Source: Anthoceros angustus
Taxonomy: Eukaryota; Plantae; Anthocerotophyta
Assembly: GCA_010909165.1 (NCBI GenBank)
Contig: VJWM01000116.1
Span: 888,585 to 952,584, forward strand
Reading direction: 5' to 3'
DNA: 64,000 nt
Shown: one piece after another, positions 35,535 to 64,000 of the stretch
Layout: every line of letters begins with the position of its first letter
Numbering within the stretch: the first letter of the stretch is position 1
The notes under the pieces: model-generated
Told to the model about the DNA's origin: nothing
The model's database searches: none
Seen by the model: only the letters and a program-made list of their open reading frames with translations
Position numbers and translations under genes: made by a program

Positions 35535-36066
35535 CTCCGCTCAGGGCTCCCTTGTCATCAAATTTTGCGCTCCTCGCAAACTCCTCCCTGACAACCCAAT
35601 ACCCACAATAAAGCAGCTGATAAGATGCGTCCGTCACAGTGGCCCCGCCATATTCACTCCATGCTTCAGACAACAAAGCTACAACCCAAGCTCAAGCTCG
35701 CCAACACCAAACTGCTCAACGAGCACTACACTAGATACCGGAGCAACAACGCGGACAGCTCCCTGGCCACGGATGCTCCGGATCTGCTACAAGATGCCGA
35801 CCGTCTTCTTTTCTTTTGTTCTTCTGTGGAGGACACGATGCCCACCTTCTTCGTTATTTCTTTCCCTTTTCTTAAGGAGAAAAGATGACGACCTCTCGGC
35901 GATGCACACGCAAGCATACATAACACAAAATATAGGGCTTTATATACCGCGATATAGGGCTTCGATTCATTACCTATGTACAGCAGATTCAAGGTAGGGG
36001 TAGTGTAGGGCTAGGGTAGATTACACGCGACGTTGCGTGTAGTGTTGGCAAGGAAGGTTCAGTTGC

Positions 36067-36211
36067 GTGCCTTACACGTGAAGGCTGCTCACCCTTCAAG
36101 GCGGCTTTCTGGTGGTTGCTGCTGCCTCGCCACAGGTTTCTGCAGAGTGCCTTACACGTGAAGGCTGCTCACCCTTCAAGGCGGCTTTCTGGTGGTTGCT
36201 GCTGCCTCGCC
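36067..36211. repeat. Two copies (80-bp period) of the GCCTTACACGTGAAGGC palindromic repeat
   Basis: gtgccttacacgtgaaggctgctcacccttcaaggcggctttctggtggttgctgctgcctcgcca at 36067 and 36147. Confidence 0.9.
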
Positions 36212-38849
36212 ATGGCTGCTAAAGGGAAATCGAAGGTAATATACTACTTGGGTTTGTAATATAGCTTACAGTAGAAACAAGTAAACAAGTAACGCGTTTG
36301 ATCTATGTTTGCAGGCTCAGCCAAGGCAAAATATGGTGATGCTCGACTTGCGCAACCGCGCGTGGTCGAGAGGTTCAAGCTATCTTTGCGCACCTCAAGA
36401 ATGTCCCACGGGATACAAGGTTGCAAAGCCGTAGACCCATTACTCCAGAATGAGAGAGGCACTTCGAAGTGCTCACATCGAATTGTAACCAGCGAGGAAG
36501 AGGGAAGGCAAAAGGCGCCAGGACCTCAATCGACACATGGCCCAATACCACAAGTAAGTATCCGATAAGAACGTGCCTTATTGTGTATTACAAGAATCGA
36601 CATCACATTGTGTATTGTTTAGAATGTACATAGCGAGGATTCCCACGAATCCTGAGATCGCGGCAAAAAGTGAGAAGGGACACAGACACAAGAAGATGGC
36701 GGGCCGCATAATTAGTGAGATTTATGAGGGAAGCGGACCATGTGAAACAGAGTCCAAGGAAGAGGAGGAGGCCGAACGTGCTTGGGAAAGCAGATTTCAT
36801 TGGAGTGACAGCACATGTGGTCGCTTTTTGAGAGGTTTGTAGAGCCCGCTTGCTAGACGAGGTAAATGGTCTGAGATCGATGGGCTTTTCCAGCCTTGCC
36901 GTGCATTGCAACATGCATGCAGACCGGAGGCATGGATCGGGAGACGGTGATGCAGCCTCCGTGATTGGGTGGACAGGGAAGGGTGGGGAACGCCATCAAC
37001 GATTACAAGGATTACCATCCAAGAAGACATCTCTAGTGCTGCACTTTTGTGCGTGGTTTCATTCATCGGGCCAACCATGTTGCGGTGTTCAAGTTCTTAT
37101 TTTGAAGAGTTCAGAGTGTTTGGCTATTCTTTCCCTCATGGAACACTTCCGAAAGATATGAGGCAGCGATGAGGTTATGGGAGCAACACTTTTCCAAGAT
37201 TCAAGAGTTCCCGATCCTGTGTTCTGTAAGTATTTCTACACCGCTCATCATTTTCATGTCCTTTCCATGTTCCAATGCCGTGGTGGTGCAAAGGCATAGA
37301 AGACGAGGACATACAAGTGGATGCGCAAGTGAAGTTAATGGAAGAAAGGGCAGCTCGGAGAGCACATGAGGACATGGCCACCGACCATGAACAATCCAAC
37401 GTCAGAACGAAAGGATGAGGATGAAATAACGATTTCTCATCATCGAGGAGGAGGAGGAGGAGGAGGAGGAGGAGGAGGAGGAGGAGGAGGAGGAGGAGAG
37501 GAGGAGGAGGAGGAGGAGGAGGAGGAGGAGGAGGAGGAGGAGGAGGAGGGGGAGCAGGAGGAGGAGGAGGAGGATGAGGAGGAGGAGGTTGGGGAGGAAG
37601 AGGAGCCAAAGATGTACAAGGATGGCGGGTTCCAGATTTTCCCCATGTGCAAGCCATGGTCGGAAGGTAATCGTATGTTTTTTCCGTGCATGTGCTCTCG
37701 ATTATCGTGTAATGTATGTTACAGCAGGTGTTTGTTGCGATTTTACACGACAATGGTAATGCATCTTACAGAATGTGTTTGTTGTGGAACTTACGAGTAG
37801 TCGTGATGTATCTTACAGAAGAGGGGAGGAGGTGAAGGAGGAGGAGCAGGAGGGGTTCGTGAAGGGGAGAAAAGGATGAGGTTCGTGGGGAGGAAGCCGA
37901 GCCACGGAGAAACAAGGAAGGGCGGGTTCCAGATTTCCGCATGTTCAAGGCATGGTCGGAAGGTACTATAACGGATAGTTGTAATGTATGTTACATACAT
38001 ACGTTTGTTGTAGAAGTTACAGGGTTTAGCTCTCATGTATGTTACAGACATCTGTTGTTGTGGAACTTAAGACGGTACTGTAATGTTTCTTACAGAAAGA
38101 GGGGAGGACGAGGAGGGGAGGAAGGGAGGAGGTGGGGTGGAGGAAGAGGAGGAAGCAGTACAAGGAGGAGGAGGAAGGGAGGAAGGGGTTGAGGTTGGGG
38201 AGGAGGAAGAGGAGCGACAGCAGTACAAGGATGCGCGGTTCCCGCATTTCCCCATGTGGAAGCCATGGTCGCAAGGTACTGTGTTTTTCCTTGCATGTGC
38301 TCACATTATCGGTTCAGCAATGTATGTTACAGCAGTGTTTGTTGCAATTTTACATCGCATAATGCATCTTACACGATGTGTTTGTTATGGAACTTAAGAC
38401 GGTACTGTACTGTATCTTACAGAAAACAGGGGAGGAGGAGGAGGAGGAGGAGGACGAGGAGGAGGAGGGAGGCGCAGGGCACGAACTTCATGGACATGCA
38501 GGATTTTGCATGTGCCTCCCTCCGCCCCCACCCAAGGCGCTGAGAGGCCCCAACCGAGGCAGATGAGGTACAACGACCCTCCCCGCACGAATACGCTGTC
38601 CGAGGAGTCCACACGATCTCGGCGCTCCAGAGTAAGATGTCGTCCAGGGTTCCTGAATTGTGGAAGGATCTGATGTGGGATGTTTTGACCCGAATTGTTG
38701 GTTCCTCCATGGCGTAAAAGAAGGGCCACACTCGCGGCGAACCATCTCCACGAGGCTGGTTAGTGTTGCAGGACGACGTTATGTCTTCAGCGACGGCAGC
38801 CCCGGTGGAGCCAACCCCCAAGAAGAAGAGGCGGAGGCGGAGATTTTAA
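36212..38849 (+). pseudogene. Element gene A, copy 1: spliced gene for a Glu-rich protein with repeated exons and C-terminal NLS; frameshifted as assembled
   Basis: cgccATGG start followed by a GTAATA..TTGCAG intron. Poly-GAG tracts, an exon-terminal motif (YKD.RFP.FPM.KPWS) x3, and an end PVEPTPKKKRRRRRF* (TAA 38847-38849). Structure is conserved in copy 2. Confidence 0.6.
37446..37590 (+). repeat. (GAG/GGA)n microsatellite, poly-Glu coding
   Basis: About 45 GAG units with few interruptions. The copy-2 counterpart at ~54263-54322 is shorter. Confidence 0.95.
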
Positions 38850-41032
38850 TGTGCTTTACATGAATCAAATGTAAGGTAGTGTACACTTTACCACCGGGGG
38901 AGGGTGTTTGCAGTCGGATGACTGTAATAAGATTTACGTAAAACGCCGTCAGGTACGTTACATGAATGCATGGTAAGGTACTTCACAGTCGTTTAGGGGT
39001 CTTTACATGACTAACACCTTCGGGGGTCTCTAAATTCTTTCAGGCAGGGGCGCGGGCGCCGGAACGGCGGGTCGGGCGAGTGAGTCACTGTGACCATGTG
39101 GGGAGAGGGTGCTTGCATGGGTGACTATGTCGCTTTAACCCTAAAGACCGTGGAGGTACGCTATGTAATGCGCAGTAAGGTCCTACAGAACGGGTCATGA
39201 CTTACACCCTCGGGTTTCTCCAAATTCAACAGGCGGGCGCGGAGGCTGGCGCGGGCGCAGGTCGAGGCCGAGGTCGACGCTGGCCGCCGAGGGCGAGGTC
39301 GAGGCGGGCGAGGTGCGGGCGGGCGAGGTGCGGGCGGCACCGCTTCTGGACCGCGGGGAAGGGTGCTTGCATGACCGTAACGTGCTTTAACACTTCATAA
39401 GGCGCTACACAATTACCGTAAGGGTTGTAACATGATTACGCTGTAAGGTTCTTTACAGTCGTCACGTGGTCATGACTTACAACTTCGGGCGTCTCTAAAT
39501 TCAAACTCGCAAACGCCGGGAGTGGTGGTTGTTCCTTGAGGGCAGGACGTCATGGAGTACCTTCGTGGAATCCCCATATCGGGTGTGAAGTGGTTCTCGA
39601 CATACAACCAGGCAGCAGAAGCGCAAAACCAAAACCCCTTCCATGCTGGGGAGTTGTTCGCCCACGATCTGGTGTTCATGGGCCGGAATTCGAAAGAGGT
39701 TGTGGCAAAACGTTTGTACTTGCTTCCCTCCGCTATTTGGGACATTATGTGGAAGGCGAGGAGTAGTGGAGCTATCCGCTTTTTATGATATTGTCCACTC
39801 GAACAAGCCGCCTGGTTTGGGGACGCCGATTTGAAGCCCCACAAGCGCCACCGACAAGTGCGGGCCAAGTTAAAGGATATATCTGCAGAGTGGATATAGC
39901 GATGACATGGTAGGGAGATTTTTCAAATCCATGATCTCGTTGGAAAGGAGTTCACACACCGCTTGTTCGGTTGTTGTGGTGGGAGGTATCGTTTTGTAAT
40001 GTACATTACAATGTTGATATGTAATGTACACTTGAACTTTAATCTTAAGGCCATGACGACTTTCATCCGTAATATACCTTACACGTTGTTCATTCTCAAT
40101 CCCCGCAGATACTCGCCACATTGGCGCATTAGCCTCATCGGGTTTGAGGATTTCGATGACAGGAAGGTGCTCCACTTGAACGGTTGCAGACCCACAAAAT
40201 TCTCTTGTCATTAGACTTAGGCGGAGTAATTTTTAAGGATCACGGGTGTCCTTGAGATCTTGGGCTTGGGAGTCGGATAGGTTCGCATGGCGTCGGTGTT
40301 TTCCGTGACTTCAGCCCACGACGGATGAGGCAGCGTAAAGGAATGCTCGTTCGTACGATGTGTTTGGACAATTTGTTGTGTCGGCGTAATGGAGGCTTAG
40401 AGTTGAAGGGACGAGGTCTGAGCCCATTGACCTATTAATCGATACACGGAGAGAAGCAATTTTATGAAGTTTGCAGTCGCTCAAAGCGGTTGGACCGTCA
40501 ACCATGCATGCACCGTTGAGAACATGGTAATTCGTAAGGAGGTTTATATACGAACCCCTTCCGTTGCGTAACCCTTTGACGAAAATCACTGATCTAAATC
40601 ACGCAGCCATCAGCCTCCGACAATGGACCATTCTTGGCCCCCGACTAAGTCATGAACAACACAATTGAGGCATACACACGGACAATAGGTGGTGCCGGCC
40701 GGCTACCGGATGAAGCCATGAGTGGAAGAGGGACGTTTTAAATGTGCACTTCGCAAAATGGCACCGATAGACACATGGCATAATGAAGTTTATGTCGGAA
40801 TCCTAATACATTGGATCCGGTTACTCGTGCGGGCTATTCGGTCTCAACGGGCCACGAAACGCGAGAATCTAAAACTACAGCTAGGTTCGCACGCTCCGGT
40901 TCTTCTTCAAAGCTGTTCTCACCCAAAGCGTTGTCGTTGTTAACCTCCGCGCTTGGACACATCGGCGTGGGAGGTTGCCATATGGTATCCAGCGTTTGCA
41001 AGTCCCCTCCAACAATTCGTTAAGTCTTCATC

Positions 41033-42822
41033 CTCCGGCACTCAAAGAAACAACTTGGGCCTTTGAACAATCCTTTTCACTTATACAAACCTCCTTTGCC
41101 CAGGCTGCGAAGGGCGCTGCGATGGGGCTCAAGGTAAGCTCTTCTTGACTCCGGAGAACCTCGATCCGTGGATCTGTTGGGGGATGTATCCAAAGACACC
41201 GTAAGTCGCCCGATGGCGTCTGATTTCTTCCTGAGCAAGGCTGCTAATCTGGTTGTGCCACGGAGCATCGTCCACCACCCGGTCTCCTTCTTTGAGAAGG
41301 TCTTGATCAATTTCATCATCACCAAGAGGCCTTTGGTATGGGCATACCACCAACTTGTCATGGGACAAGTACACCTTCTTTACCACGGTGTCATGGCCTA
41401 TGACGGACCTCCCATTGTTAAAAGTGCCATGCATGGCATTCGGCATCATCGAGCTCGATCCTTTGAACACCCATCTTTCAAGCCCCATCCGGTCACATAC
41501 TCCTTTGTTTCAAATCCTATCATTGCTCATGTTAGTTTTATCCCACACGAAAGACACCAGCCACCCTTCTTACACCACTGCGCGATTCCCGTCTTGTGTG
41601 GGCTTCCTCCACTCCATGCATGACAATCATGCGGAAGTCTTCGCTTAGTTTTCTCATGGAAAAGCTGTACTCAACATAGTGGCATCCATCCGTTTGTCCA
41701 TAGGCCCAATATCAAAGCCTCACACATCCATGACTAACGGGGTGTACCTCCTCACCAAGGTAGCCCCGCATCTCCAAAATATCTCGCTTCTCCACTTGGT
41801 AATGAACCTCCTTCTCGATCCACGAAGTAAAATGTGCAGCCCTTCATGAAGATCAGTATACGCGCTCATTGCTCGTCTTCCAAACTCTTCCAATTATTGA
41901 TCTCGAAAATGAAATTCTTAAAGTCCTCCGGCATTCAAAGAAACAACTTGGGCCTTTGAACAATCCTTTTCACTTATACAAACCTCCTTTGCCTGCTGGG
42001 CCTGCGGGGCTCAAGGTAAGCTCTTCTTCAAAGATCCGGAGAACCTCGATCCGTGGATGCGCCTGGGGATGTATCCAAAGACACCGTAAGTCCGCGATGG
42101 CGATACGCTTCCATGCAGCAAGGTCGCTAATACTGCTGTGCCACTCCGAGCATGCGCCCACCACCTCCTTCTTTGAGAAGGTCTTGATCAATTTCATCAT
42201 CACCAAGAGGCCTTTGGTATGGGCATACCACCAACTTGTCATGGGACAAGTACACCGCTTCTTTACCAGTGTCATGGCCTATGACGGACCTCCCATTGTT
42301 AAAAGTGCCATGCATGGTATTCGCATCATCGGAGCTCGATCCTTTGAACACCCATCTTTCAAGCCCCATCCGATGTCACATACTCCATCGCTTCAACCGC
42401 CCCTATCATTGCTCATGTTAGTTTTATCCCACACGAAAGACACCAGCCACCCTTCTTACACCACCGCAAGATCGATTCTGCATCGTGGGCTTCTCCACTC
42501 CATGCATGACAATCATGCGGAAGTCTTCGCTTGTAGTTTTCATGAAAACTGCTGAAAATCAGACTCAACATAGTGGCATCCATCCGCTTGTCCATAGGCC
42601 CAATATCAAAGCCTCCGGGCACATCCATGACTAATGGTGTACCTCCTCACCAAGGTAGCCCCGCATCTCCAAAATATCTCGCTTCCACTTGGTAATGAAC
42701 CTCCTTCACCACAGAACAGAAAATGTGCAGCCCTTCATGAAGATCTCAGATTCCGCCATAGCTCGCTTTTCCAAACTCTTCCAATTATTGATCTCAAAAT
42801 GAAATTTTAAAGTCCTCCGCAT
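41033..42822. repeat. ~893-bp tandem duplication inside the Sola-like element
   Basis: cctccggca.tcaaagaaacaacttggg at ~41032 and ~41925. tcttccaattattgatctc..aaagtcctcc at ~41887 and ~42777. Confidence 0.85.
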
Positions 42823-44569
42823 TTTCCGTAAGTTGTCTATATCCTTCAATTCTTTGCAGGCAAAAACGAGTAAGTGCATATCTGACGTGTCTGAAACATT
42901 ATGCACCGTAGATCTCAAGGGGGAGGCCGCCGGCGCCTCTGGCCTCAGTTCTATGGATCTGAGATGGCGGCCGGGCTGCCAGCAACTCCATCACATGTGG
43001 AAGTGGCCTCGCCAGCCGCCTGCAAGAACGTTAGGGTTTGTAACGACATGACGAGAGAATTAGAAAACGATGGGTAGTATGGCACACCTTCCCATGAATG
43101 CCGTCTGAACCGAGCTATCATTTGTCGATCATGCAAAGGATATTCCTAACCTCTTGAATGATGAGCAGCCCAAGTGTTTTACCATAGCCACTTGTATAAC
43201 ATGAAACTTCTTCCGTAAGGTAATCTCCTCATCCATACCTTTTAGGTCGACACCCGCCAACACCTTCTCTTACCGATGAGTATCCACGACCGACTCTCCA
43301 CCGAATCTTGAACGATTTCCACGGCTTTGCTAGCATATCCTTCACGAACAAAGGTCAACAACCGAGCCTCTTGTACCTTCCGCTTGCCTTTGCCCTTCTT
43401 ACTTGTTCAGAACATGTTTTTTCCGCAAATTCTCCACCTCCCATTTTGAAAATATTCGATCCACGTTGTCCCAAACCTTCCTCCCGCTGCAAATGCATAA
43501 GATGTGGGTCCGATTGTCCACCTTATTCGCTTGTAAACATCGCCTTCCCGACCTCCGCTGCCCTCAATCAAGCCCAATACACGGTGATAGGTTGAATTTC
43601 CAATTCATGGTCATCCTGACATCATCTCGCCTCGGCAATAAGTTCGCCCTCAAGTACCGACCGCCAATGAAGGACATCTTCTTCCTTTTGTCCGACATCT
43701 TCTTCCTTTTGTCCGACTCGCTGCTGCTATGTCGTCAAGACGGCAGCCCATGGGTCGCTGATAAGAGTGAAGTGATATGTGTCACCGATCATCGAAACCT
43801 ACAGAACCGATGTGCCGCAAATTGGACGAAAGAAAGATTTCGTGAGCAACAGTATAGATTCATAAGAACGTGCACAAGAAAGCAGAGACATTCCTTCGCC
43901 TCAGTCCATCGCGATGTGGACCAATGATAAAGGAAAAGTTGTCACCATGTTATGGGGGAGTGTTCCGACATGTTGTCTCAAGGCTGGCTTTATTGTGGGA
44001 CACATCCCAGATGAGTTGAAGGCTAGAGTTCTTGAACTCACCGTGGATGGTTTCGTAACAAACCCCATACAGCCTGCATGCGCTTAGGGCCATAGCTTGA
44101 TGGACGATTTTTATGTACATGGTCGAGAGGCTCCCAAATGTGAGGTTTTCAATCTTCCCGACACGCATACAAAATTAGAAATATGGTTGCTATACAAACT
44201 AGAAAGGTCACATATGTCACCTACGCGGTTCTAAAGTTAAAGCTAACAGAGTGAAGATCCCAAAGTCAAACCGGCTTCTCGACATGCTCGCTTAGTGGAT
44301 TGAAGACAACCATACCAACTCACTGTATATCGATCAAGGTACCGTGCACTCTTGTTCCTCTCGCATGCCCTTTCTAACCTTTTTGCGTGAACCACCTGCA
44401 GCTTGTCGTGGCCAGACCGGTCCTAGGTGCTTGCTGCATCGCTTTTGGAGGTTTGGGCGCTCTTTACCGGATGGAGGTTTGGTTATAGTCGGCCCCTTAT
44501 ATCACAAGAGAGTGCAGGCGCCCTCTGCTTTCACAAGAGGCAGTCATCATGGGGATGGTTAGTTGCTGC

Positions 44570-45720
44570 TTTTGCATATCCAAACATGTTAGTGGATATG
44601 GGAACTTTTGAGAAAAAGGTGGGGTTTCTTCTGGACATACTCATGATCAAATTGACCAAATGTTTTCATGTTTTTCAAAGAGCTTGAAACATGTGGAAGC
44701 TCATACTCTCGCATTGGCGGCAATTTTGAAAGAGGCGTACACTCCAACACCGAGGTGAAGGTATTAACGGAGGTTCCACTTCCGCTCCTATGTTTGGCCG
44801 TTACGACAAGGGGATGGACGCCAAGCACGGAGTCGGCGTAAATTGAACAACCCGTCATTCCAAAGATCAGCTCAAAATTACAAGAGAAGAAAACGACTGT
44901 GGCCGGTGATACTATTAGAAGCAAACAATATTCGACATCGCCACAATGGGAAACTAAGCCGGTTTGAGTTTTTGAAGTTTGTCCCATCCACGACGTAACC
45001 GCCAAGACGGCCGACATCCCTTCGTGCCCGTGATAAGAAAGGCACATCGTGGTTATCCCCAACCGAGGTGTGGCTCACTTGAAGGAGGGCCTCCGCTTAG
45101 ACCATATGTCACCGCAGAGGAATATAAATGGTGGGAAGAATTTTGGGTGGACCAAGAGGAGATCGTTATTGTGGAGAATAATATAGGGCTCGCACTCCAA
45201 GACGCATGGAAGTGGTTTTCGCGGATGAAGTTGAAGAAAAAATGAGGTTCTTCACGTGCTCGAGGCGCTATAGAGGAGGCTTTACTCGTGGACCTTCCCC
45301 AACGGAATATGTACCTTGGTGCATATCAAACCGTTGTTAGACAAGAACAAGAAACTGCGGTTGAATGGTGACATTTGAAATAAGGAAAGACATGTTCATT
45401 GCCCGCACCACCGGCTGATCGAACAGCGCCGGATTGGCGGTGGTCATTGATGTTCACTTAGATGCACCGATCCTCACTTTGTCGCTCATTGGTACATGAC
45501 GAGCACATGCGTATGAAGGAAGGTATGTTGAAGAATTTATAATCCGACATGAAGGGACCCAGTGACGAAATCGTGGAAAAAGGAGGAAAGCTAATTTGCA
45601 CAAAACGCATAAAAGGTTTTTGTGAACAAAACGTGATCATATATTATGGTTTCAACTTGAATGCTCGCAAACATTTATATTGTGGACAAGAAGGCGATCG
45701 ACTAAAATTAAATGAATTGC
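44570..45720 (+). pseudogene. C-terminal part of a Sola1-like DDD transposase
   Basis: FAYPNMLVDMGTFEKKVGFL/SGHTHDQIDQMFSCFSKSLK (GHTH..IDQ.FS at 44633-44668), then ILKEAY..EVKVLTEV, SKQYSTSPQW, EEYKWWEEFW. The first two catalytic Asp motifs were not found. Confidence 0.7.
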
Positions 45721-52446: not shown

Positions 52447-52475
52447 GATTTGAAATTCGAATTCAATTTCAAATC
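52447..52475. other. AT-rich hairpin (11-bp perfect arms) at the unit junction; candidate replication origin
   Basis: GATTTGAAATT-cgaattc-AATTTCAAATC. The hairpin is seen directly; the origin function is inference. Confidence 0.55.
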
Positions 52476-52562
52476 AGCACTGGGGGCTGTGAGGGGTTTG
52501 AGGGCGCTTTGGTGTGAAGGCGTTGCGTGTGAGGGACGCTCGTGTTATGTCGCAGGCTATGC

Positions 52563-53032
52563 GGTGCCCGCTTACACGTGAAGACCGCTCACACTTCAAG
52601 GCGGTTTCGGTTGCCGCCGCCGCCACAAAGCCGCGAGTGCATTACACGTGAAGGCTGCTCACCCTTCAGCGGCTCGGTTGCCGCCGCCACAAAGTTTCGC
52701 AGGTGCCTTACACGCGAAGGCCGCTCACCTTCAAGGCGGCTTTTGCCGCCGCCGCCACGCTGGCAGAGTGCCTTACACGTGAAGGCCGCTCACCCTTCAA
52801 GGCGGCCGTGGTTGCCGCCGCCCGCCTACAGCGCAGTGCCTTACACGTGAAGGCCGCTCACCCCAAGGCGGCCGTGGCTTGCCGCCGCCACGGTGTTTCG
52901 CAGAAAGTGCCTTACACGTGAAGGCTGCTCACCCTTCGCGCCGTGGTTGCCGCCGCCGCCACGTTTCGCAGAGTGCCTTACACGTGAAGGCTGCTCACCC
53001 TTCAAGGCGGCTCGGTGGTTGCCGCCGCCGCC
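52563..53032. repeat. Seven ~66-71-bp tandem repeats centred on GCCTTACACGTGAAGGC
   Basis: CACGTG (one CACGCG) cores at 52575, 52645, 52711, 52776, 52844, 52915 and 52981. Confidence 0.92.
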
Positions 53033-55618
53033 ATGGTCGCCCGGAAGGGAAATCAAGGTAATATACTACTTGGGTTTGTAATATAGCTATGAGAAACAAG
53101 TAAACAAGTAACGCTGCTTGATCTATGTTTGCGTGCTCACCAAGGCAAGATATGTAGATGTTCGACTTGCTAACCGCCGCGTGGTCGAGAGGTTCAAGCT
53201 ATCTTTGCGCACTCAAGAATGTCCCACGGGATACAAGGTTGCAAAGCCGACCGGACATTACCTGTGAGAGAGGCACTTCGAAGTGCTCACATCAATTGTA
53301 ACCAGAGCGACTTAAGAGGAAGGCAAAAGGCGCCTGGACCTCAATCGACATGGCCCAATACCAAGGCAAGTATCCGTGCGTGAACGTGCCTTATTGTGTA
53401 TTACAAGAATCGACATCACATTGTGTATTGTAGAATGTACATAGCGAGGATTCCACGAATCGCGTCCGGCAACAAGTGAGAAAAGGCGGAAGGGGGCTGC
53501 GTGACACAAGAAGATGGCGGGCCGTATAATTAGTGAGATTTATGAGGGAAGCGGACGTGAAACAGAGTCCGGAAGATGAGGAGGCCGAACGTGGGAAGTG
53601 AGAAAGCAAAGATTTTCCGTTGGAGTGACAAATGCACATGTGGTCGCTTTTGAGAGGTTTGTAGAGCCCGCCTGTTAGACGAGGTAAATGGCCGGTACAA
53701 GATCGATGGCTTTTCCAGCCTTTGTGCATTGCAAACAAGATAATGCATCTGCATCTATGGAGGCAGAGACGGTGATGCACCGCCTGATTGGGTGGACAGG
53801 GGAAGGGTGGGGAACGCCATCAACGATTACAAGGATTACCATCCCAAGAAGACATTCTAGTGCTGCACTTTTGTGGTTGGGTTTCATTCATCGGGCCAAC
53901 CATGTTGCGTGTTCAAGTTCTTATTTTGAAGAGTTCGAGTGTTTATTCTATTCCTCATGGAACACTTCGAAAGATATGAGCGATGAGGTTATGGGAGCAA
54001 CACTTTTCCAAGATTCAAGAGTTCCCGGTCCCCAAAATTTCCCTGGTAAGTATTTCTTCACCGTCACCATCATTTTCATGTCCTTTCCATGTTCCAATGC
54101 CGTGGTGCAAAGGTATAGAAGACGAGGACATACAAGTGGATGCGCAAGTGAAGTTAATGGAAGAAAGGGCAGCTCGAGAGCACATGAGGACATGGCCACC
54201 GACCATGAACAATCCAACGTCGCGAACGAAGCAGGATGAGGACGAAATAACTGATTCTCATCCGAGGAGGAGGAGGAGGAGGAGGAGGAGGAGGAGGAGG
54301 AGGAGGAGGAGGAGGAGGAGGATGAGGAGGGGAGGAGGTTGGGGAGGAGGAAGAGGAGCGCCAGATGTACAAGGATGGGCGGTTCCAGCATTTTCCCCCA
54401 TGTGCAAGCCATGGTCGGAAGGTAATCGTAGTTTTTCCGGCATGTGCTCTCGATTATCGTGTGTAACAGAATGTAATGCCATGTTAGCAAAGGTGTTTGT
54501 TGCGATTTTACATCGATGGTAAATGCATCTTATGCAATGTGTTTGTTGTGGAACTTACTTACTAGTAATGTGATGTATCTTAAGAGAAGAGGGGAGGAGG
54601 TGAAGGAGGGGAGCAGGAGGGGTTCGTGAAGGGGGGGAGAAAGAGGATGAGGTTCGTGGGGAGGAAGCGAGCCACAGCGGAGAAACAAGGAAGAGGCGGG
54701 TTCCAAGATTTTCCGCATGTTCAAGGCATGGTCGGAAGGTACTATAACGGATAGTTGTAATGTATGTTGAGACATCGCGTTTGTTGTAGAAGTTACAGGT
54801 TTAGCTCTCATGTATGGAGACATCTGCTTTGTTGTGGAACTTAAGACGGTGCACTGTAATGTTTCTTAAGAAGAGGGGAGGACGAGGAGGGGAGGAAGGG
54901 AGGAGGTGGGGTGGAGGAAGAGGAGGAACAAAGCAGGTACAAGGAGGAGGAGGAAGCGGGGAGGAAGGGGTTGAGGTTGGGGAGGAGGAAGAGGAGCCAG
55001 TACAAGGATGCGCTGGTTCCCGATTTCCCCCATGGAAGCCATGGTCGCAAGGTACTGTTTTTTCCTTGCATGCTCACATTATCGAAATGTACATGTTACA
55101 AAGAAAGGTGTTTGTTGCAATTTACATCGCAGCCGTAATGCATCTTACGATGTGTTTGTTATGGAACCACGACGGGTACTGCATCAGATCTTACAAAAAG
55201 GGAGGAGGAGGAGGAGGAGGAGGACGAGTGGGGAGGGGAGGCAGGAAGAACTTCATGGACATGCAGATTTTTGCATGTGCCTCCTCTCCGCTGCCCCCAC
55301 CCGAAGGCGCCTGAGGAGGCCCCTCAACCGAGGCAGATGAGGTACGACCCCTCCCCGCACGAAGACGATTGGCCCGAGGAGTCCACACGATCTCGGCGCC
55401 AGTAAGATGTCGCCCGTGGTTCCTCGAATTGTGGAAGGATCTGATGTGGGATGTTTTGACCCGTAATTGTTGGTTCCTCCATGGCAAAGAAGGGCCACCG
55501 CTGGCGAACCATCTCCACGAGGCTGGTTAGTGCTGCAGGATTGACGCGTGTCTTCAGCGACGCAGCCCCTGGTGGAGCCAACCCCAAGAAGAAGAGGCGG
55601 AGGCGGAGGCGATTTTAA
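53033..55618 (+). pseudogene. Element gene A, copy 2 (acidic, repeated exons, C-terminal PKKKRRRRRRF*)
   Basis: gccgccATGG at 53033, the same intron positions as copy 1, and TAA at 55616-55618. Frameshifted as assembled. Confidence 0.6.
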
Positions 55619-56314
55619 TGTGCTTTACATGAATCAAATGGGCGGTGTACACTTTACCACCGAGGGTGTTTGCATGGATGATAATAAGTTTTACGAAACG
55701 CTAGGTAATGCGTTACATGAATGCGTGGTAAGGTACTTCTACTGCTTAGGGTCTTTACATGACTAACACCTTCGGGGTCTCTAAATTCTTCTGGCAGGGC
55801 GCAGGGTCGGGCGGGTGTAGTCACCGTGGACCATGGGGGAGAGGGGTGCGGCAATGGGTGACTATGTCGCTTTAACCCTAAAGATCGTGAGGTTCTACGT
55901 AATGCGAGAAGGTCCTTTACAACAGTCATGACTTACACCTTTCTCCAACTAACAGTATGGCGCGCGAAAGGCCGGGCGAGGTCGAGGTCGAGGTCGAGGT
56001 GGCCGCCGAGGCGTAGGCCGAGGCGTGGCAGGCGAGGTCGAGGGCGAGGCGAGGGCGAGGTGGAGCGGCGCGGGTGAGGGCGAGGGCGGTGCGGCGCGGC
56101 AGCCGCCACGGACCACGGGGAAGGGGTGCTTGCATGACCGTAACGTGCTTTTAACACTTCACGTGTAAGGTACGTTACACCGATACCGTAAGGGTTGTAA
56201 CATGATTACTGTTGTAAGGTTCTTTACGCCACGCGTGGTCATGACTTACAACCGGCGCCTCTAAATTCAAACCGCAGGGCCGGAGTGGTGGTTGTTCCTT
56301 GAGGCGTGGAGGTC

Positions 56315-59300
56315 ATGGAGTACCGTGGAATCCCCATGTCGGGTGTGAAGTGGTTCTCGACATACAACCGTGCAGAAAAACCAAAACCCCTTCCATGCTG
56401 GAGTTGTTCACGATCCGGTGTTCATGGGCCGGAATTGAAGAGGTTGTGGCAAAACGTTTGTACTTGCTTCCCCTGCTGCTATTTGGGACATTATGTGGAA
56501 GGCGAGGAGTAGTGGAGCTATCTGCTCTTTTTATGATATTGTCCACGCGAACAAGCCAGTTCCAGGGTTTGGGGACGTCGATTTGAAGCCCCACAAGGCG
56601 CTCACCGACGAAGTGCGGGCCAAGTTAAAGGATATATTCGTACAGTGGATATAGCGATGACATGGTAGGGGAGATTTTTCAAATCCATGACAGCCTCGTT
56701 GGAAAGGAGTTCTGCTTTGTTCGGGTTGTTGTGGTGGTGGGAGGTACGTTTTGTAATGTACATTACAATGTTGATATGTAATGTACACTTGAACTTTAAT
56801 CTCTAAGGGCCATGACGACTTTCATCCGTAATATACCCACGTTGTTCATTCTCAATCCCGCAGATACCGCCACTGCGGCGTACTAGCCTCATCGGGTTTG
56901 AGGATTTCGGTGAGAAGGTGCTCCTCTTGAACGCTGCACACAAAATTCTCTTGTCATTTCGTCTTAGAGAGTAATTTTAAGGATCACGTGGTGTCCTTGA
57001 GATCTTGGGCCAGAGCTGGATAGGTTCGCATGGCACGTGGTGTGTCAGGACTTCACTCCACGACGGATGAGGCAGCGAAAGGAATGCTCGCTCGATGATG
57101 TTTTGGACAATTTGTGTTGTCGGGCGAATGGAGGCTTAGAGTTGAAGGACGAGGTCCGAGCCCATTGACGACATAATCGATACACGGAGAAGCAGGAAGC
57201 TTGCGCTGTCAGCGGTTGGACCGTCGAACCATGCACACCGTTGAGGTGGGTCTCGTATGGATGTCGCGGATCGCAGACATCAAGCAAAGCATGGCATCAC
57301 GGTTTCGCGCGATGTCTCGCCGGACCGGTGTCCCAAACCAAAGTGCAGCCGGAGAGGTGGGATGCCGCCTTGCCGAATGCAAGAATTATTGGTTAAAGGC
57401 ATGTCTGGTTTGGCAACAAAAGATGTGTACCGTATATGTCGGTTGGGTACGATGGGGGCTGCTACCCGGCCGTGGTGCCGCGTCGATGATCTATGTCAAT
57501 GTGCCCGCTGATATCCGACACCGTTATGGGCATGTATGCCGAAGTAAGACATGTAAACTGTAAGGCATATTATAGTGTTGGTTTGTAATGTACCTAATCG
57601 GTTGTGAGAACTATTGTCACCGCAGTGCAGGTATCCACGGACTTCTATGCGGGTTCAAGCTCGATATGTTGAGACCATATCGTAGAGGCGGGAGCGCTAT
57701 GGCATCGGGCCGCGGGGCAGCGAACGATATGGCTCGCCGGAGAATTTCGCGGGATTATCGCCCAAGACATCCCACGCCAACACAGAGCTGGCCAACCCTC
57801 TCGCCGCCGCTGTAGGTTGGAGGGTGGAACATACACATCCGCCCGTTAGTGTGGGTCGAGGACATGCCCCATCAACAACGGCTATGCGACTTAGAGAATG
57901 GAACACATGTTTTCATTGGGGTCCTTCATGTGGCGACTCGATGTCAAGGCAATCCTATCCAACTCCATGCGACATGTACGACCACGACCGCATGACGGTG
58001 GGTGTTTGGTGCTTTGGGTGCAAATCATGGCGTGGGAGATGTTGAGACGGCCCGTGGATCGGACTGGTGAAAACTCCGAGCCCTGGAAAGGACTAGGCTT
58101 TGAAGTCAATTGGGAAAGATACAACGATATCGATTTCGAGGAATCGATCGAAGTTCATCGCCCTGACGCAGTGACTCCAACAAGTTGGTACCGTCTGAAG
58201 CTATATCATATTCAATCGACGCCCGCTTAACAAACATTGATGTATTGCAGCCCGAGCTACGGAAGACTAAGCGCGCTCAATGGGTGAAGTACACGTACCG
58301 TAAACCCGCGACGAGGTGATTCTCATCACGCACCGTGTTCTTTTGGGCTGCGAACTACACCTACGCTTGAATAAATTGTTGCATCCCCATGATCCTGAGA
58401 GGGGTCCTGCCCGTTTCTATCAAGACCTGCTAGGTGACGTGGGTGATGGTATATGTACGGTTTGCCTCAATTCGTTGGGGAAGAATGTGTCGGAGGAGTT
58501 CATCCAGAATGTGGATTACGTCATTGTGGATGAGGCAAAGGCTGTGCGGAAGCATTCGGTGGGTGCCACGATGGACTCTGGTGGCCTAGCAAATAGGGTG
58601 GAGGACATACTGACGAGGCTCGTCAGAACTGCAAAGAAGGTTGTCATCATGGAATGGGACATGGATCGACGAACAGTGGGTTGGTTCACATCGCGTGATG
58701 GTGTAGACCCATCGGACAGGGATAAGGTGTATGCGTACTGTTGGAACGTAGGCGTTCCGCGACAACCCATGTTGATCACACACAGCTATTATGTGTTATT
58801 TCCGTATGTGACCGAATGAGCGTGCGACGGAGAGTGTGCTTCAGAGTGAGTGTGCTTACAAGATGAGTGTGCTTACAAAGATGAGTGTGCTTAAGAGTGA
58901 GTGTCCTTACATCGCAGAGTGAGTGTCCTTACATCAGACAGAGTGAGTGTCTCACATCCGCATGCAGTGAGTGTCCTTACATCCGCATGCAGTGAGTGTC
59001 CTTACACTCCGCTTCTCTACCTTTCGCAGCTCATCACATATGTTAACTGGGTTTACACAACGGCAAGTGCATGTATCCACCGACGTCTCAGGCTCCGCCG
59101 AGAATTGTCACCAACTCATGGTTGGTGTGAAGAGCCACATGGAAGCGCATCCTACATGGTCTAGGGATGAAATCCGAGCAACGCAGGGAAGGGTGAAGGG
59201 GATATGGTCTGATGTCGCAAAGGACAAGTGGCAAGTAGACCTGATGAAGACTTCAACAGTGGTCTCATACCGATTGTGATATTCTATTTGGCAGCCCCTG

Positions 59301-61500
59301 ATTCAATGCGTATCTCCGTAGACACCCACTTCAAAGCGGCGATGGATGTTTTCTCACTTCTCCAACACGACATGGCGAGGTGCAACACATGTTGCGCCTC
59401 AGGAAGTTCGAATTAATGGATGACCTGCCCATGGGTAAGAAATTCAGGTTGAGCCACATCACTCCATCTAGAGCATTTCGTAAGCGCCTCACGGCTTCGG
59501 CCCTGGACGCCATTTGTGCTACATGGGGCCGCACAATAGACGCGCACTCGCTTGCGGAACGAGACCGGCAAGTGCATCCCCATTATCAGCTTCAGGTAAA
59601 CATTTCGCCTGACTTACTGATATATGTATACTGTAATACGGCTCACACTTTCTATGTGGAAGGTGGCTTACATTTGTATGGGGTGTGTTACGCTTCTTGT
59701 GGTGTGTCTTACGCTATGTACCTGTAAGGTGTCTTACACCGCAGATGTGTATGCAGGAGTTGGCACTGTCGGATGCCAAATACAATGTGGAGGTGGCGCG
59801 CGACAACCATGTCGGTGCACACAAGGAGGCTTTGGCGGTAGCAAGAGTGTGCATCGACAGTAGAAATGAAGTGGTTTTGGATGCCGATCTGCATAACCAA
59901 GAACGTTACGTTGTGTCCAATGACATAACAGACGATAGGTGGGACCCTCCTAATTGTAGCGGGAGGGAGGATTGGCAAATTCTTTCTGTAGAGGAGTGCC
60001 GAGAAAGGTATGTGTTGTTTTCCATTTTCAGTTGTTTTTGACTTCATGTATTGCCGATTGCATTGATATTCGACAAGATGTCTTCTTGTTTCAGTGATTG
60101 CGATAGCCACAAAATATCGGGGAACTGGCAGATTGGGTGATACACGATCACCCATCCCGAGACCGGCTCCATATGGAGTCGCAAAATATATGCGCAGGCC
60201 GAGGACTTTGGAAATCCCGAGGGCCAAGGAGTGTTCCGTACTGCTTTTGGGCGTAATCAATGTGATTCTCGATCACCGCAGCGACTCCACCGGGTTGAGG
60301 GTTCACCGCTTGTAAAGCGGTGGATTTCTGCCGGCCTTGAGCGCCTTTCATGGACTACGTGTCGCCGATGTTTTCCAACAATGCATATTGTACCTGTGCA
60401 TGGGTGAATAGGCAGGAGTTGATGGACAGCCTCATCACGAGGTATTTTGTCATGTTATCTGATGTTGAGGTGCCTTTACGATGTGTTCCATCGAGGTATT
60501 TTGGCATGTTATCATAAAGGAGGTGCTTCGGATGTATTTCAAATATGTTTATCGTCACACATGCAAAAGTGTTACACGGATGAGGTGCACCTCAGAGCAC
60601 GCGACAACCTCGCACTGGCCGGGGGCCGCATTTGGAGGTTTTTCTATAGTAGGTGCGTAAGAGGGCATCCCCTTCTTGGAATGGGATAGCAAGTGTCCTA
60701 CGGCGGACAATAGGCGGGAATTAAGCGAGCAGCGTTATCGACCTCGGAGATAGTCATGATCCGGCTCCCGCCGAGAGAAGCCGTAACATCCGAGCATACC
60801 ACCGCCCACATTATGCAGTGCGCCTTTGTTTAGACATGGCAATAAGAGGGAAGGTGAACAAGCCGCGGCAAACACAAGATCATTTGGAGAAACTGTGGTC
60901 GCAGAGCTGTTGAAGCTAGCAATGCAACAAGCGCCGAAAGCAAGCCACCAATCTTGGGATGTCATAGCAGAGGAACCCACCGAGTTGGGAAATGTGTTAC
61001 AATCGCTATTCAGATCTCGCGGACAACGCTGACTAATCTATGGCGCACCGGGCCGATGGGGAGCTGAGCGAGTCGTACACGAGCACGTACCATCGACGAC
61101 GTCCGGCAACAAACATTGCAAGGAAGGGAAGACGCGTGGGCAACGAATCGCCACGCAACGCGGACAGAGGAATCATGACGACTACGCGATCCTTAAGACC
61201 ACGCGAGTTGATGAGTGGATGAGAGGTCTAAACATCGGTGCCGTGTCGCCATTAACCACCTTACGAATGTTGCTACCGCAACCCCTTTAACGCGTGCTTA
61301 TCGCAACATCGTGGAAGTTACCCGAGTTCGCTAAGATAATATCTCGAGGCTGCTGCCGTAACGGGTCTCCCCCATACATGTACGATAGAAAGGGCCACAC
61401 ACATGTGCAGTTGTTTTTGGTCCGCCCGCCATCTTCTTCTCAGACATTCTACACATGTACACACAAGGCACAAGAGACAACTACGTAAGCCATCTTACGT
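56315..61500 (+). pseudogene. Element gene B, copy 2: uninterrupted PrimPol-UL9-like helicase fusion gene, spliced; frameshifted as assembled (possibly sequence error)
   Basis: FYDIVHANKP..FGDVDL and KFSCHFVL. ORF 58316-58819 reads ILITHRVLL..CTVCLNSL..VDYVIVDEAKAV..ATMD..LVRTAKKVVIMEWDMD. Then DCDI..SP..ISVDTHF..QHMLRLR, resembling UL9 motifs V/VI. End is approximate. Confidence 0.78.
58830..59008 (+). repeat. Intronic minisatellite (GAGTGT(G/C)CTTACA)n in gene B, copy 2
   Basis: About 9 degenerate copies, longer than in copy 1. Confidence 0.8.
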
Positions 61501-62098
61501 ATACACCGAAGGCGCCTTCTTGCTCACGAAAAGGGCGGCAGCACATCGCACCCAATGCGCCGTTACCACCCCAGCGGCGAAGTGAGTAGTCGCCGTCGGA
61601 CGCAAACCACTGACAAATCCCCACAAACAAAGCCCACACCACGGAGGGGACCACCTCAACCGCCGGGGAGCCCCTAGGACGGCATTGCTCGCGGCTGGAG
61701 GTGCGCTGCGCCCACTACCACCGTGGCAGTTCAGCCTTATCATCTTTGCGGCACCTCAGAATATCCACGGGGATACGATGCAAAGGTGCCCGATTACTCC
61801 GAGACTGACTGCGTGTAGTGCACTTCACAGAAGTGCAGGAGCGGCTTCTTAGAAGGGGTTGGCATTAAGGTTCAACCCGATAGCGTGGAGTTCTGATGGG
61901 AGTAAGTAACATGGATTACAAGGCATGAGACCAGCGAATCGGCACAGCATGGCATGTACCACATCTAGTAACATGCGTAAGTGCGCGTGCCTTAGCTGTA
62001 TTACGACTCTGCTTTCCATCACATTGTGTATATGTTTAGTCCGACTTCCGAGGATCATGACGAGGCACACCACCGTGATCCAATTTCTTGTGTGCAGC

Positions 62099-63640
62099 GT
62101 GAAGGTACTCACCCTTCAAAGCGGCTTTAAGGGTAGTTCTTCTGGTTGTACCTTAAAGCAAGAAGATGGCGGGCGGAAATCGAAGGTAATATACTACTTG
62201 GGTTTGTAATATAGCTTAGTCCAAGAGAAACAATGTAAACAAATACTTAACGCGGCATTTCCGATCTATGGAGTTTGCGAGGCTCGACCAAGAGCAAAAT
62301 AGCCTCTGTGATGCTCTGCGGCGGTGGTCAACTTCGGTGACCGTTGCATTAGTCGAGAAGGTTCAATTGCTATCCTTACGGTGAGCAACCTCAAGACATT
62401 TGGATTCTGAGGCGACAAGGGTTACAAAGCATTGGAGACCCAGATAACTTGGTAGGAATGAGAGTAGCACTTCTGGAAGTGCTACTGTGATGGCATGCGT
62501 TACATGTCGTATGGCGGCAGCGTTGGAAGGCATAGAAGGCGCCAACGTTCCGACCTCAATCGACCTGGCCCAATACCACAAGTGATATCACGTGCGATGT
62601 GATGCCTTATTCGTGGCGTGCCCTTACGATGCGTGAGGGTCTGCTCGCCCACGTATTGTTTAGAATGTACATAAGCGAAGGGGTTACGAATCACATTGAA
62701 CAGTCGAGCTATCGGCATTGGCGGAGAAAAGGCGGAGAGGAAATCGGCTATGTGCACCAAGAAGATGGCGGGCAGGACAATTGTGAGAAGTGAGTGGCTA
62801 TGCGGACGCAAACCACGACGTAAATCCCCATGAAGCAGTGCCACACTGCAGAGTGACCACTAGCAGCGTGCTTGGGCGAGAGAAGTAGCATTGGTTGGGC
62901 GGTGCTTGCGAAGTTAGGTACCCATGAACGCCAGCATGTGTAGCGTAAAGATTTATCGCAGCATCATAAGGCATATTCTTTGACAGGCGGTGGTGCTAAC
63001 CTGAGACGGCGTGTAGTGTTGCGATAGTAGTTGTTGGCGTGCCTTACGGGAAACCTTGTTTACTTGGCGTGCGTTACATTGACGACATTGGCATTAGGGT
63101 TGGCATTGATGGCATAACTCTAGTTACATAGTGAGTAGTAACATGGATTACATGCTTGCCTGATAGCGTCGTTACATGTCGTTACATGTCATGTAGTAAC
63201 ATGCCTTATGTCGTGGGCTGCTACTTACGAACTCAGGTTTCTAGCGGTCGACCTCGGATCTCATGAGCACTGCCAAAGAGCACCACCATGCCTTCTACAC
63301 ATGGGGCCCTCCCTTCAGCTACTGCATGCAGGTGGTCACTGAAGCGAACCCTCGGGGTGGTGGTCTGAAGGGTCCTCGGGTGGCATCACTCAGTGTTAGT
63401 ATAGAGTGTCGGTGATGGGACCATAGCGGCAAGTGAGAAGTGAGGGAGTAGGTGGCTTGCGGACTTAAAACCACTCGACATAATCCCTCAAGGCAAATCA
63501 CAGTGCCCACTGCACAGAGACCACCCCCCCGTAGAGAGCCCCCTCAGGGGCGTAGCATTATTGTCGTAGTTGGAGGTCTTGGGTGCCCACTATGACGTAA
63601 AATTGCCTTATCGGCGCGCAAGGCGACGGTGGGGTGCCCC
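62099..63640 (+). mobile_element. Garbled start of a third unit interleaved with 520-bp-repeat sequence
   Basis: gtgaagg..ctcacccttcaa (~62100), ggaaatcgaaggtaatatactacttgggtttgtaatatagc (~62175), tgtttagaatgtacata (~62657), mixed with gtaacatggattaca repeats. Confidence 0.55.
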
Positions 63641-64000
63641 TTCACAGGCGGCGCGTGTGAGGTGCATGGGTTGGTTCACGTGCGCTGACGATGAAATGGT
63701 CGACATCCAAGAAGGTAATGATCATTTACGCTGCCAAATCCATTTTCCGGTTGATGAATCCATGGCTAAAATGACTTTCCGAAAGCAATAGTAAAGACCC
63801 AACAAACCTTAAATGGCGATCAAACAACAATGTTCCCACCCATGGGGATCCGGGATATGATGACAGTCAAGTTCAAATCCTCTCATTGAGATACGAAAGA
63901 TAGTTGAGAAAGGTAATACATTTCAATTATCGAATTGAATCTCCGTGAACATTTCTAACTCGATATCTTGTTACAAGATTAACGAGCACACTATGTTCAC

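Follow-up and report, generated by a model that had tools for sequence, protein, structure and literature searches.

A head-to-tail array of a two-gene cassette with a UL9-type helicase gene in the nuclear genome of the land plant Anthoceros angustus

The window analysed here, a 64,000-bp stretch of Anthoceros angustus contig VJWM01000116.1, contains a head-to-tail array of a two-gene cassette whose second gene (gene B) has as its product a UL9/origin-binding-protein (OBP)-type superfamily 2 (SF2) helicase; both helicase copies are broken, as assembled. We read the array, with confidence evenly balanced, as the decayed chromosomal relic of a small virus- or plasmid-like replicon in a land-plant nuclear genome. 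In the literature searched, UL9-type origin-binding helicases appear in eukaryotic nuclear DNA only as isolated brown-alga genes, and land-plant giant-virus footprints only with D5-type helicases. Finding a tandem UL9-type cassette with predicted introns in a land plant extends the known range of DNA replicons that entered plant germ lines, and the array directs attention to a little-described family of small elements carrying hardly anything beyond a large initiator.

Self-blastn of the window confirmed a direct repeat of ~9-10 kb, with head-to-tail units in the same orientation at 36.0-52.6 kb (unit 1) and 52.6-62.1 kb (unit 2) that are 82-87% identical. The original prediction had placed a direct-orientation unit at ~36.0, ~52.6 and ~62.1 kb; two of these are full copies and the third is only a stub, in which a head portion (62098-62815) with 63-66% identity to the unit head is directly followed by 540-bp-type repeats (62783-63673). 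On the right the array runs on past the end of the 64-kb window. Each full unit runs from short head repeats through the region of an acidic gene (gene A) and that of the helicase gene to ~540-bp repeats. Unit 1 appears longer because a 6.1-kb terminal-inverted-repeat (TIR) transposon is inserted within it; after subtraction of this 6142-bp element the units measure ~10.4 kb and ~9.5 kb, respectively, and not the ~10.7 kb first proposed. Tail repeats were also proposed and are present, with a period of ~540 bp in place of 520 bp. The features and the matches between units are as follows.

36022-36212, plus strand: head of unit 1, a short palindromic lead-in and then two direct repeats
36212-40300, plus strand: gene A copy 1, ATG in a GCCATGG context and then AAG/GTAATA; 3' limit approximate
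46663-50930, with the first ~90 bp at 40430-40520, plus strand: gene B copy 1, a heavily broken UL9-like helicase gene
40521-46662, no strand assigned: nested TIR element in unit 1, 6142 bp, foreign to the unit
50880-52570, plus strand: inter-unit spacer, ~2.6 copies of a ~540-bp repeat
52571-53033, plus strand: head of unit 2, ~7 copies of a 66-bp repeat, terminating in GCCGCCGCCATGG
53033-57000, plus strand: gene A copy 2, ATG and donor as in copy 1; 3' limit approximate
57177-58300, plus strand: gene B copy 2, upstream part with zinc knuckle and degenerate P-loop
58304-58803, plus strand: gene B copy 2, helicase exon, an open 171-codon frame (ORF 58304-58816)
58804-59029, plus strand: gene B copy 2, predicted intron, GTATGT to a pyrimidine tract and CAG
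59030-61624, plus strand: gene B copy 2, remainder, frames broken or split by further predicted introns
62098-63673, plus strand: unit 3 stub, unit head joined to 540-bp-type repeats
36067-37539 and 52907-54358, direct: unit 1/unit 2 match, 86.4% (self-blastn)
37516-39336 and 54264-56057, direct: unit 1/unit 2 match, 84.9% (self-blastn)
39231-40520 and 55997-57245, direct: unit 1/unit 2 match, 84.7% (self-blastn)
46663-50926 and 57241-61624, direct: unit 1/unit 2 match, 82.3% (self-blastn)

The unit heads, described beforehand as a palindromic repeat array, are arrays of 66-80-bp direct repeats, two in unit 1 and ~7 in unit 2, and their palindromes are 6 bp only (e.g. CACGTG). The two unit 1 repeats lie at 80-bp spacing, with 66 bp identical and a CACGTG in each, and the unit 2 copies show 76-81% matches and 8-11% indels. 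An inverted-repeat scan (>=14 nt) found one inverted repeat, at 52444-52478, with an AT-rich 29-bp palindromic site at 52447-52475; each ~540-bp spacer repeat carries a TATATAG-like box and ACATG-rich short palindromes. The nested element has TIRs of roughly 27 bp (ACATGGTAATT...GGAGGTT.ATAT), is flanked by a 5-bp target duplication (TTGAG), and holds an internal ~890-bp tandem duplication (41031-42823). The host genes of the window keep long reading frames intact. Upstream of the array are NFXL1 and POT genes, and its left edge adjoins a plant gene of 517 aa, likewise intact, whose end is at 35540. Intact host genes on the left and the nested TIR element both count for a chromosomal setting.

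Gene A was expected to be acidic and to carry a nuclear localization signal. The acidic tract is there, with (GAG)n of 54 units at 37445-37605 in copy 1 and 32 units at 54264-54358 in copy 2, and the translation shows a K/R run, near 55.59 kb in copy 2, which also has an RG-rich tract near 56.0 kb. Copy 1 contains internal ~300-bp repeats. Neither copy matched a protein family in a Pfam search of the window ORFs, and no counterpart of gene A was found in the metagenomic relatives of gene B.

The UL9-like helicase proposed for gene B is borne out by an exhaustive search, a family profile and a fold search, which are concordant; Pfam alone stays below threshold, PF02399 (Herpes_ori_bp) matching at E 9.1e-4 with 17.9 bits vs a gathering cut-off of 20 and over profile positions 127-196 only. 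Exhaustive phmmer with the helicase ORF returned 13 matches at E<=1e-3 (best 7.4e-7), with identity to any relative of at most 37% over ~100 residues; PF02399 is found in 12 of the 13 at E<=1e-3 and in 11 above the cut-off. The best three Atlas clusters (scores 0.94-0.96) bear the same domain. An HMM built from the 13 relatives, run against 2455 window ORFs, hit the helicase ORF at E 3.1e-30; the family profile matched the solved HSV-1 UL9 (E 2.5e-21) and human PrimPol (E 2.3e-6). The helicase exon carries motifs Ia (VILITHR), II (VIVDEA) and III (VVIMEWD) of the first RecA-like domain, with D76 and E77 invariant across 16 sequences, and its AlphaFold model has a pLDDT of 84.8. In the fold search, origin-binding proteins of herpesviruses and OBP/primase-helicases of giant viruses were the best viral matches (30 at E<=1e-3). 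The second RecA-like domain is marginal: a frameshift-tolerant profile scored 23.4 bits where the controls peaked at 20.9, the HSPs that run collinear with the L004 protein are weak, and motif V/VI-like strings near 59310-59400 are reachable only across frame breaks. Acquired spliceosomal introns had also been proposed, and at least one canonical GT..AG intron is plausible, that at 58804-59029; as read from the sequence it would keep the frame into 59030, and it has 16-25-bp tandem repeats inside.

An archaeo-eukaryotic primase (AEP) domain, likewise proposed for gene B, went undetected in searches of low sensitivity. No window ORF had a Pfam AEP match, an AEP profile (built on few sequences) scored 22.2-22.9 bits against the window DNA, within controls (mean ~17.5, maximum 24.7), hhalign found no AEP in the window, and the Atlas gave no lead to one. 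The nearest relatives of gene B carry an N-terminal PrimPol-like primase and are AEP-plus-UL9-like initiators. A zinc knuckle lies near 47255-47437 in copy 1 and, as CFGC, at ~57990-58015 in copy 2; the GVWCFGC knuckle is collinear with the CFGC of the relatives (hhalign over 9 columns, E 6e-4, probability 28%), and HMM values were E 0.8 and 6.3. The undetected primase half of the supposed initiator counts against a relic of a replicon.

As had been stated, transposase, integrase and capsid genes were not found, and neither was a polymerase; the search covered 187 ORFs of >=70 aa, 96 on the plus and 91 on the minus strand, and their fragmentation limits its sensitivity. A known transposon class (Helitron, Polinton/Maverick, LTR or DIRS element) without its recombinase is an extremely improbable source of the array. 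Helitrons are able to form tandem arrays and the unit does carry a helicase, but this is SF2 UL9-like and not Pif1-like, the window ORFs hold no HUH Rep, pPolB, integrase, RT, tyrosine recombinase or capsid family, and the left edge has short head repeats only, without a full terminal repeat. Helitron was rejected with no HUH Rep or Pif1-like SF1 helicase on either strand, and Polinton/Maverick or polinton-like virus with no protein-primed polymerase, integrase, packaging ATPase or capsid in the 187 ORFs.

The many giant-virus OBP/primase-helicases among the fold matches, and the giant-virus footprints that have been described from a moss and a lycophyte (PMC4083422), would suit an endogenous giant-virus (Nucleocytoviricota) insertion of which the window holds a fragment, with the remaining genes outside it. 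This origin is nonetheless highly improbable: no Nucleocytoviricota core gene turned up besides the helicase in 28 kb on both strands, the left flank is host DNA, and what repeats is a cassette of two genes, with predicted introns. The closest relatives, moreover, sit on contigs of 1.9-11 kb and not on large viral ones, and a scan of viral contigs gave no relative. The giant-virus-like regions that Maumus et al. (2014; PMC4083422) described in Physcomitrella and Selaginella resemble the array in that both are fossil genes of viral replication, broken up by transposons, in land plants of early-diverging lineages; in that paper's account the regions hold up to 20 intron-less ORFs, including a DNA polymerase and a D5-type (SF3) helicase-primase, and nothing of either kind was found in the array ORFs.

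In both gene B copies the P-loop (near 47650 in copy 1 and ~58250 in copy 2) reads ..RKT, with both glycines missing and one residue short, and G[STC]GKT is present in 11/11 relatives covering the site; the shared state could be the native form of the source element and not a lesion. Copy 1 has seven frame breaks within one exon (47907-48210) and a helicase profile score of 29.6 bits vs 107.9 bits for copy 2, which has at least one break, a single base in a G run near 58318, between the P-loop and motif Ia. Gene B shows no sign of selection after the copies split: dN/dS between them is the same (0.51) in the true frame as in one of the two wrong frames, the other giving 0.71, and tblastx between units finds all three frames conserved about equally. 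The damage is lopsided, with seven breaks in the helicase exon of copy 1 and none in that of copy 2, and is reversed in the head repeats, those of unit 1 being perfect and those of unit 2 ragged. Such lopsidedness is unexpected for neutral decay of equal age, so part of the apparent decay may be consensus error. Differences between the units are also bursty (44 perfect runs of >=30 vs 1.1 expected) and rich in indels (308 indel events vs 964 substitutions), and it is a serious caveat that assembly error may account for some of the damage. The CpG observed/expected ratio is 0.86-1.05 in the array vs 0.62-0.67 in the host flanks; this lack of depletion is unexpected for an old silenced plant repeat and counts against a relic.

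The bursty, indel-rich differences, the patchy and reciprocal damage and the CpG ratio would all fit a live or recently live nuclear replicon, in which the units would be truly near-identical and their frames open, the breaks assembly error in a repeat beyond the reach of polishing, and the head-to-tail concatemers amplified by the element's own initiator; so would the open 171-codon exon of copy 2, near which the sole break is a single base in a G run, and relatives that are stand-alone small elements. We consider this unlikely. The non-canonical P-loop is common to both copies, and random error would not yield it twice; the indels are broad in size (1-5 bp) and without homopolymer bias (50/118), unlike typical residual long-read error; no primase was detected in the window; and host genes in the same window keep long intact frames. 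It is just as unlikely that the array represents a young or active ~10-kb two-gene element of an undescribed class of eukaryotic nuclear replicon, its small indels being assembly noise. Such a class would have a primase-zinc-ribbon-UL9-helicase initiator, spliceosomal introns and a repeat-built origin/promoter spacer, and would enter chromosomes as head-to-tail arrays, with 6-10-kb repeat-flanked metagenomic elements as its free relatives. Were the copies intact, the element would be a candidate plant nuclear replicon, of interest to mobile-element biology and perhaps usable as a vector backbone. Nothing shows the present-day self-replication or episome of the original prediction. In the assembled sequence the copies are broken and the P-loop glycines absent, unit 1 is split by a transposon and the third unit is a stub.

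For the relic that we favour, the ancestor would be a small replicon whose large initiator (primase, zinc ribbon and helicase) would open and prime an origin in the repeat-rich spacer, with the acidic, K/R-rich gene A protein as a putative nuclear accessory factor. After integration the cassette would have lost its helicase function, and it would then have been copied in place by unequal recombination between its spacer repeats, which would account for the internally deleted third unit. The head-to-tail order may instead be a footprint of integration, left by an inserted concatemer formed during replication or by a circular episome that recombined repeatedly with its own integrated copy (Campbell-type), with no later chromosomal duplication. 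Plant-integrated small replicons are known as tandem arrays (PMC5014472, in its account of them), the unequal damage would suit copies of differing ages, and the spacer is repeat-rich and palindrome-bearing. The shared degenerate P-loop, which implies a source already without a normal ATP site, and the deleted, far more diverged third unit stand against it, leaving it somewhat unlikely.

Ectocarpus OBP genes and yam geminiviral arrays are, as far as the published accounts cited here go, precedents for a decayed chromosomal replicon. The Ectocarpus nuclear genome has isolated AEP-plus-UL9 OBP genes, one a pseudogene and one a complete ORF (Delaroque and Boland, 2008; PMC2373305), and the account of these loci describes them, like the array gene, without neighbouring viral genes. 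They are single-copy genes of a brown alga with best matches to mimivirus R1/R8, whereas the array is in a land plant, is tandem, has its own repeat-rich spacer and second gene, and has its closest relatives on small metagenomic contigs. In yam, endogenous geminiviral EGV1 units form tandem arrays (PMC5014472) and, like the array, place a replication-initiator gene and an origin-bearing spacer (putative in the array) head to tail in a plant chromosome; EGV1 derives from an ssDNA virus with a HUH Rep and 2.6-kb units, and the array has ~10-kb units and a dsDNA-virus-type SF2 helicase.

The AEP-plus-UL9-like module, which had been attributed to large DNA viruses, is documented there, in mimivirus R8, ASFV pF1055L, OsHV-1, some mriyaviruses and SmDNAV among the published descriptions consulted. 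Gene B shares its helicase family with these initiators, including herpesvirus UL9 with its inactivated primase part, and the closest relatives of gene B also have a PrimPol-like N-terminus, together with a CFGC zinc knuckle. Unlike the viral initiators, the array gene is plant-chromosomal, lies in a tandem two-gene cassette with predicted introns, and has an undetectable primase, a degenerate P-loop and broken frames.

The best sequence relatives are metagenomic (L002 and L003; proteins P0002-P0017; E 7e-7 to 8e-4), small elements whose contigs, 4-10 kb long, are taken up mostly by a large initiator gene. In L002 an array of 15-bp palindromic repeats immediately precedes this gene, which is intact and encodes 1433 aa, and in L003 the gene is flanked by perfect 2147-nt inverted repeats, so that both, like gene B, have repeats adjoining the gene; these small repeat-bearing contigs count for a replicon ancestry. 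The relatives are AT-rich (37-41% GC), and the 1433-aa frame of L002 is uninterrupted, unlike the array copies. One cluster of metagenomic relatives is labelled as a bacterial MAG.

The stretch comes from a land-plant nuclear genome, and the part to the left of the repeat array carries host genes. The features used below are as follows:

Left of the array: intact NF-X1-type zinc-finger gene, 1637 aa
Left of the array: exon of a POT/PTR2 transporter
33990-35540, left of the array: intact ORF, 517 aa
40521-46662: nested element, 6142 bp, interrupting copy 1 of the unit

The 517-aa ORF is 69-73% identical to named liverwort, moss, lycophyte, conifer, and fern proteins. The host part also holds a ~360-bp duplication (90.8% identity) at 17676-18382 and an array of 23-bp period (97-99% identity) at 1002-1199. 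No Rfam family and no tRNA was found in the window, so an rDNA-type unit (or other RNA genes) was ruled out as the identity of the repeat.

Self-blastn revealed two collinear direct copies, 36067-40520 plus 46663-50926 (unit 1) and 52907-61624 (unit 2), which match in four segments at 82.3-86.4% identity. The repeat array of the original prediction was thus largely right: two direct copies stand, and the third is a stub (unit 3), in which 62098-62815 resembles the unit head at 63-66% and is followed directly by spacer-type repeats. Without the nested element, units 1 and 2 are ~10.4 kb and ~9.5 kb, respectively, in place of the ~10.7 kb proposed. At the head of each unit stand direct repeats of 66-80 bp, numbering two in unit 1 and ~7 in unit 2. 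They contain CACGTG and a 6-bp stem and are not the palindromic array expected; they end at an ATG whose context is GCCGCCATGG-like, and a GTAATA donor then follows. The unit ends with ~2.6 copies of a ~540-bp repeat bearing a TATATAG-like box. A search of the spacer for long palindromes returned a single inverted repeat of 14 nt, at 52444-52478. Short G-rich motifs lie directly before the head repeats, GTAGGG/CTAGGG at the left array edge (35990-36030) and TGAGGG before those of unit 2 (52480-52540); they loosely resemble telomere repeats, which could be chance.

The 6.1 kb element within unit 1 is a nested transposon and lies outside the unit proper. It ends in imperfect terminal inverted repeats of ~27 bp (ACATGGTAATT...) and is flanked by a 5-bp target duplication, TTGAG, present once in copy 2. 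Inside it is a tandem duplication of ~890 bp (41031-42823), and no recognisable gene and no Pfam family was found in it on either strand.

Of the two genes of the unit, the acidic, K/R-rich gene A matched no family on either strand. The predicted product of gene B is a UL9-like helicase, as originally assigned. Among 96 plus-strand ORFs of at least 70 aa, the sole informative Pfam match was Herpes_ori_bp on the ORF at 58304-58816 (E 9.1e-4; 17.9 bits, under the cut-off of 20); smaller ORFs and whole frames translated with X at stops added no Pfam information. In the protein Atlas this ORF adjoins three PF02399-bearing clusters (0.94-0.96), and 13 proteins passed E<=1e-3 in an exhaustive phmmer search of 1.84 billion representatives; the strongest hit had E 7.4e-7 and 37% identity, and no protein reached 1e-10. 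PF02399 is found at E<=1e-3 in 12 of these 13 relatives and exceeds its cut-off in 11. An HMM built from the 13 recovered the ORF at E 3.1e-30 among 2455 window ORFs, and a profile of the ORF with 15 relatives reached E 2.5e-21 against the HSV-1 origin-binding protein of known structure. A word-indexed protein search with the 171-aa ORF (longer and near lengths) gave no match, a viral-contig scan for relatives found none, and a PDB sequence search with three ORFs gave nothing relevant.

AlphaFold reached a pLDDT of 84.8 with the alignment of the ORF and 15 relatives (36, unusable, from the single sequence). In viral models, 30 fold matches reached E<=1e-3, the best being herpesvirus origin-binding proteins and giant-virus OBP/primase-helicases; in the PDB the matches were generic SF2 helicases, with the HSV-1 OBP at rank 23. 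This fold result is not independent evidence, because the model leans on an alignment of the UL9-like family.

By tblastn all 13 relatives match the helicase exon only (E 1e-8 to 3e-12), with no match in the window to their primase or C-terminal parts. Frameshift-tolerant profile-to-DNA comparison gave the first helicase domain 107.9 bits in copy 2 and 29.6 bits in copy 1, where the reverse strands gave 13.7-14.8. For the second helicase domain the same method gave a marginal score (23.4 bits vs a control maximum of 20.9), and weak collinear HSPs to the protein of one metagenomic locus, L004, lend this domain some support. A splice-aware longest-ORF dynamic programme produced a chain that was over-fitted and was set aside.

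In the relatives the order from N- to C-terminus is AEP motifs (..FDIE.., ..KFSLHVV.., D..IY..N.LLRAPG..K), a CFGC zinc knuckle, and the P-loop, and the N-terminal columns of the ORF-plus-15 profile match human PrimPol at E 2.3e-6. The AEP primase claimed for gene B of the plant unit is unproven. Pfam found no AEP family in the window, in smaller ORFs or in whole frames with X at stops, and in the frameshift-tolerant comparison profile positions 1-345 scored 22.2 and 22.9 bits against window DNA, values that fall within the control range (maximum 24.7 for 24 other window segments; mean 17.4 and maximum 24.2 for 30 triplet shuffles). Neither hhalign of two upstream ORFs nor an Atlas query found a primase. 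The zinc knuckle GVWCFGC alone aligns collinearly with the relatives (9 columns, E 6e-4, probability 28%).

Gene B is predicted to contain introns. Downstream of the helicase exon lie GTATGT, ~226 bases, a pyrimidine tract, and CAG, and removal of 58804-59029 preserves the frame into a stretch aligning with the start of the second helicase domain; GTA-type donors also follow other ORF ends. This predicted intron contains a 16-25-bp minisatellite (GAGTGTGCTTACA-like) in both copies (58832-59012 and 48230-48356). Similar CTTAC-rich motifs reappear in the next predicted intron.

Both copies appear damaged. The P-loop reads G[STC]GKT in all 11 relatives that cover the site and ..RKT in both window copies, one residue short and with neither glycine. 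Across 47907-48210 the profile can be followed in copy 1 only with seven frame shifts; copy 2 requires none across 58457-58799, and its frame is broken by one base between the P-loop and motif Ia. The sequence as assembled, with breaks in both copies and a P-loop lacking its glycines, gives no support to the self-replicating plant element of the original prediction. Over ~8 kb aligned, 964 substitutions separate the units, of which 540 are transitions and 424 transversions, together with 308 indel events, mostly of 1-5 bp, with no homopolymer bias (50 of 118 one-base indels adjoin the same base). Identity is even along the unit and the three reading frames are conserved equally. Helicase-exon dN/dS is 0.51 in the true frame, and the two wrong frames give 0.51 and 0.71; the data thus show no trace of purifying selection after the copies diverged.

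The differences are strongly clustered, with 44 perfect runs of at least 30 columns (1.1 expected) and 17 of at least 40 (0.09 expected); over 36300-61300 they form bursts of 2-8 columns between perfect runs of up to 61 bases, which could be an artefact of patchy polishing. Damage is also reciprocal: unit 1 has a ragged helicase exon and perfect head repeats, unit 2 a clean exon and ragged head repeats. CpG o/e is 0.86-1.05 in the array and nested element (36001-62100) vs 0.62-0.67 in the host-gene part (1-35540), and CpG transitions account for 108 of 963 substitutions between units. This combination does not fit simple decay well. Patchy consensus error in a repeat would yield just such clustered, reciprocal, CpG-undepleted damage; error would not, however, yield the P-loop state shared by both copies, the nested transposon, or the stub. 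On balance we consider a live element unlikely, and give about even odds to a small replicon that has decayed in the chromosome.

The AEP-plus-UL9 architecture is known from mimivirus R8, ASFV pF1055L, OsHV-1, some mriyaviruses, and SmDNAV (two preprints). Isolated OBP genes are described in the Ectocarpus genome (PMC2373305), giant-virus-like regions with a D5-type helicase-primase in a moss and a lycophyte (PMC4083422), and tandem endogenous geminiviral units in yam (PMC5014472). The literature searched yielded no earlier report of a land-plant cassette of the UL9 type.

Replicon ancestry of the plant cassette is supported mainly by metagenomic loci that look like small stand-alone replicons built on one primase-helicase gene. 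The 13 relatives sit on contigs of 1.9-11 kb, one cluster bearing a bacterial MAG label, and no counterpart of gene A was found beside them. A locus scan of metagenomes, made with a 6-sequence alignment because that of the 13 was too diverse, gave eight loci, and two of these, L002 and L003, are AT-rich and replicon-like. L002 (6047 bp) has ~18 copies of a 15-bp palindromic repeat, TAAATCGCGATTTA(C/G), within its first 290 bases, and an intact 1433-aa primase-helicase gene (742-5043) lies directly downstream of them; the array looks like iterons or an origin. In L003 (9932 bp), perfect inverted repeats of 2147 nt (564-2710 and 7786-9932) enclose a 5-kb core in which the primase-helicase gene is the only gene, its frames split at ~6000 and ~6280. 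One arm reaches the end of the contig, suggesting that L003 is a small linear element bounded by long terminal inverted repeats.
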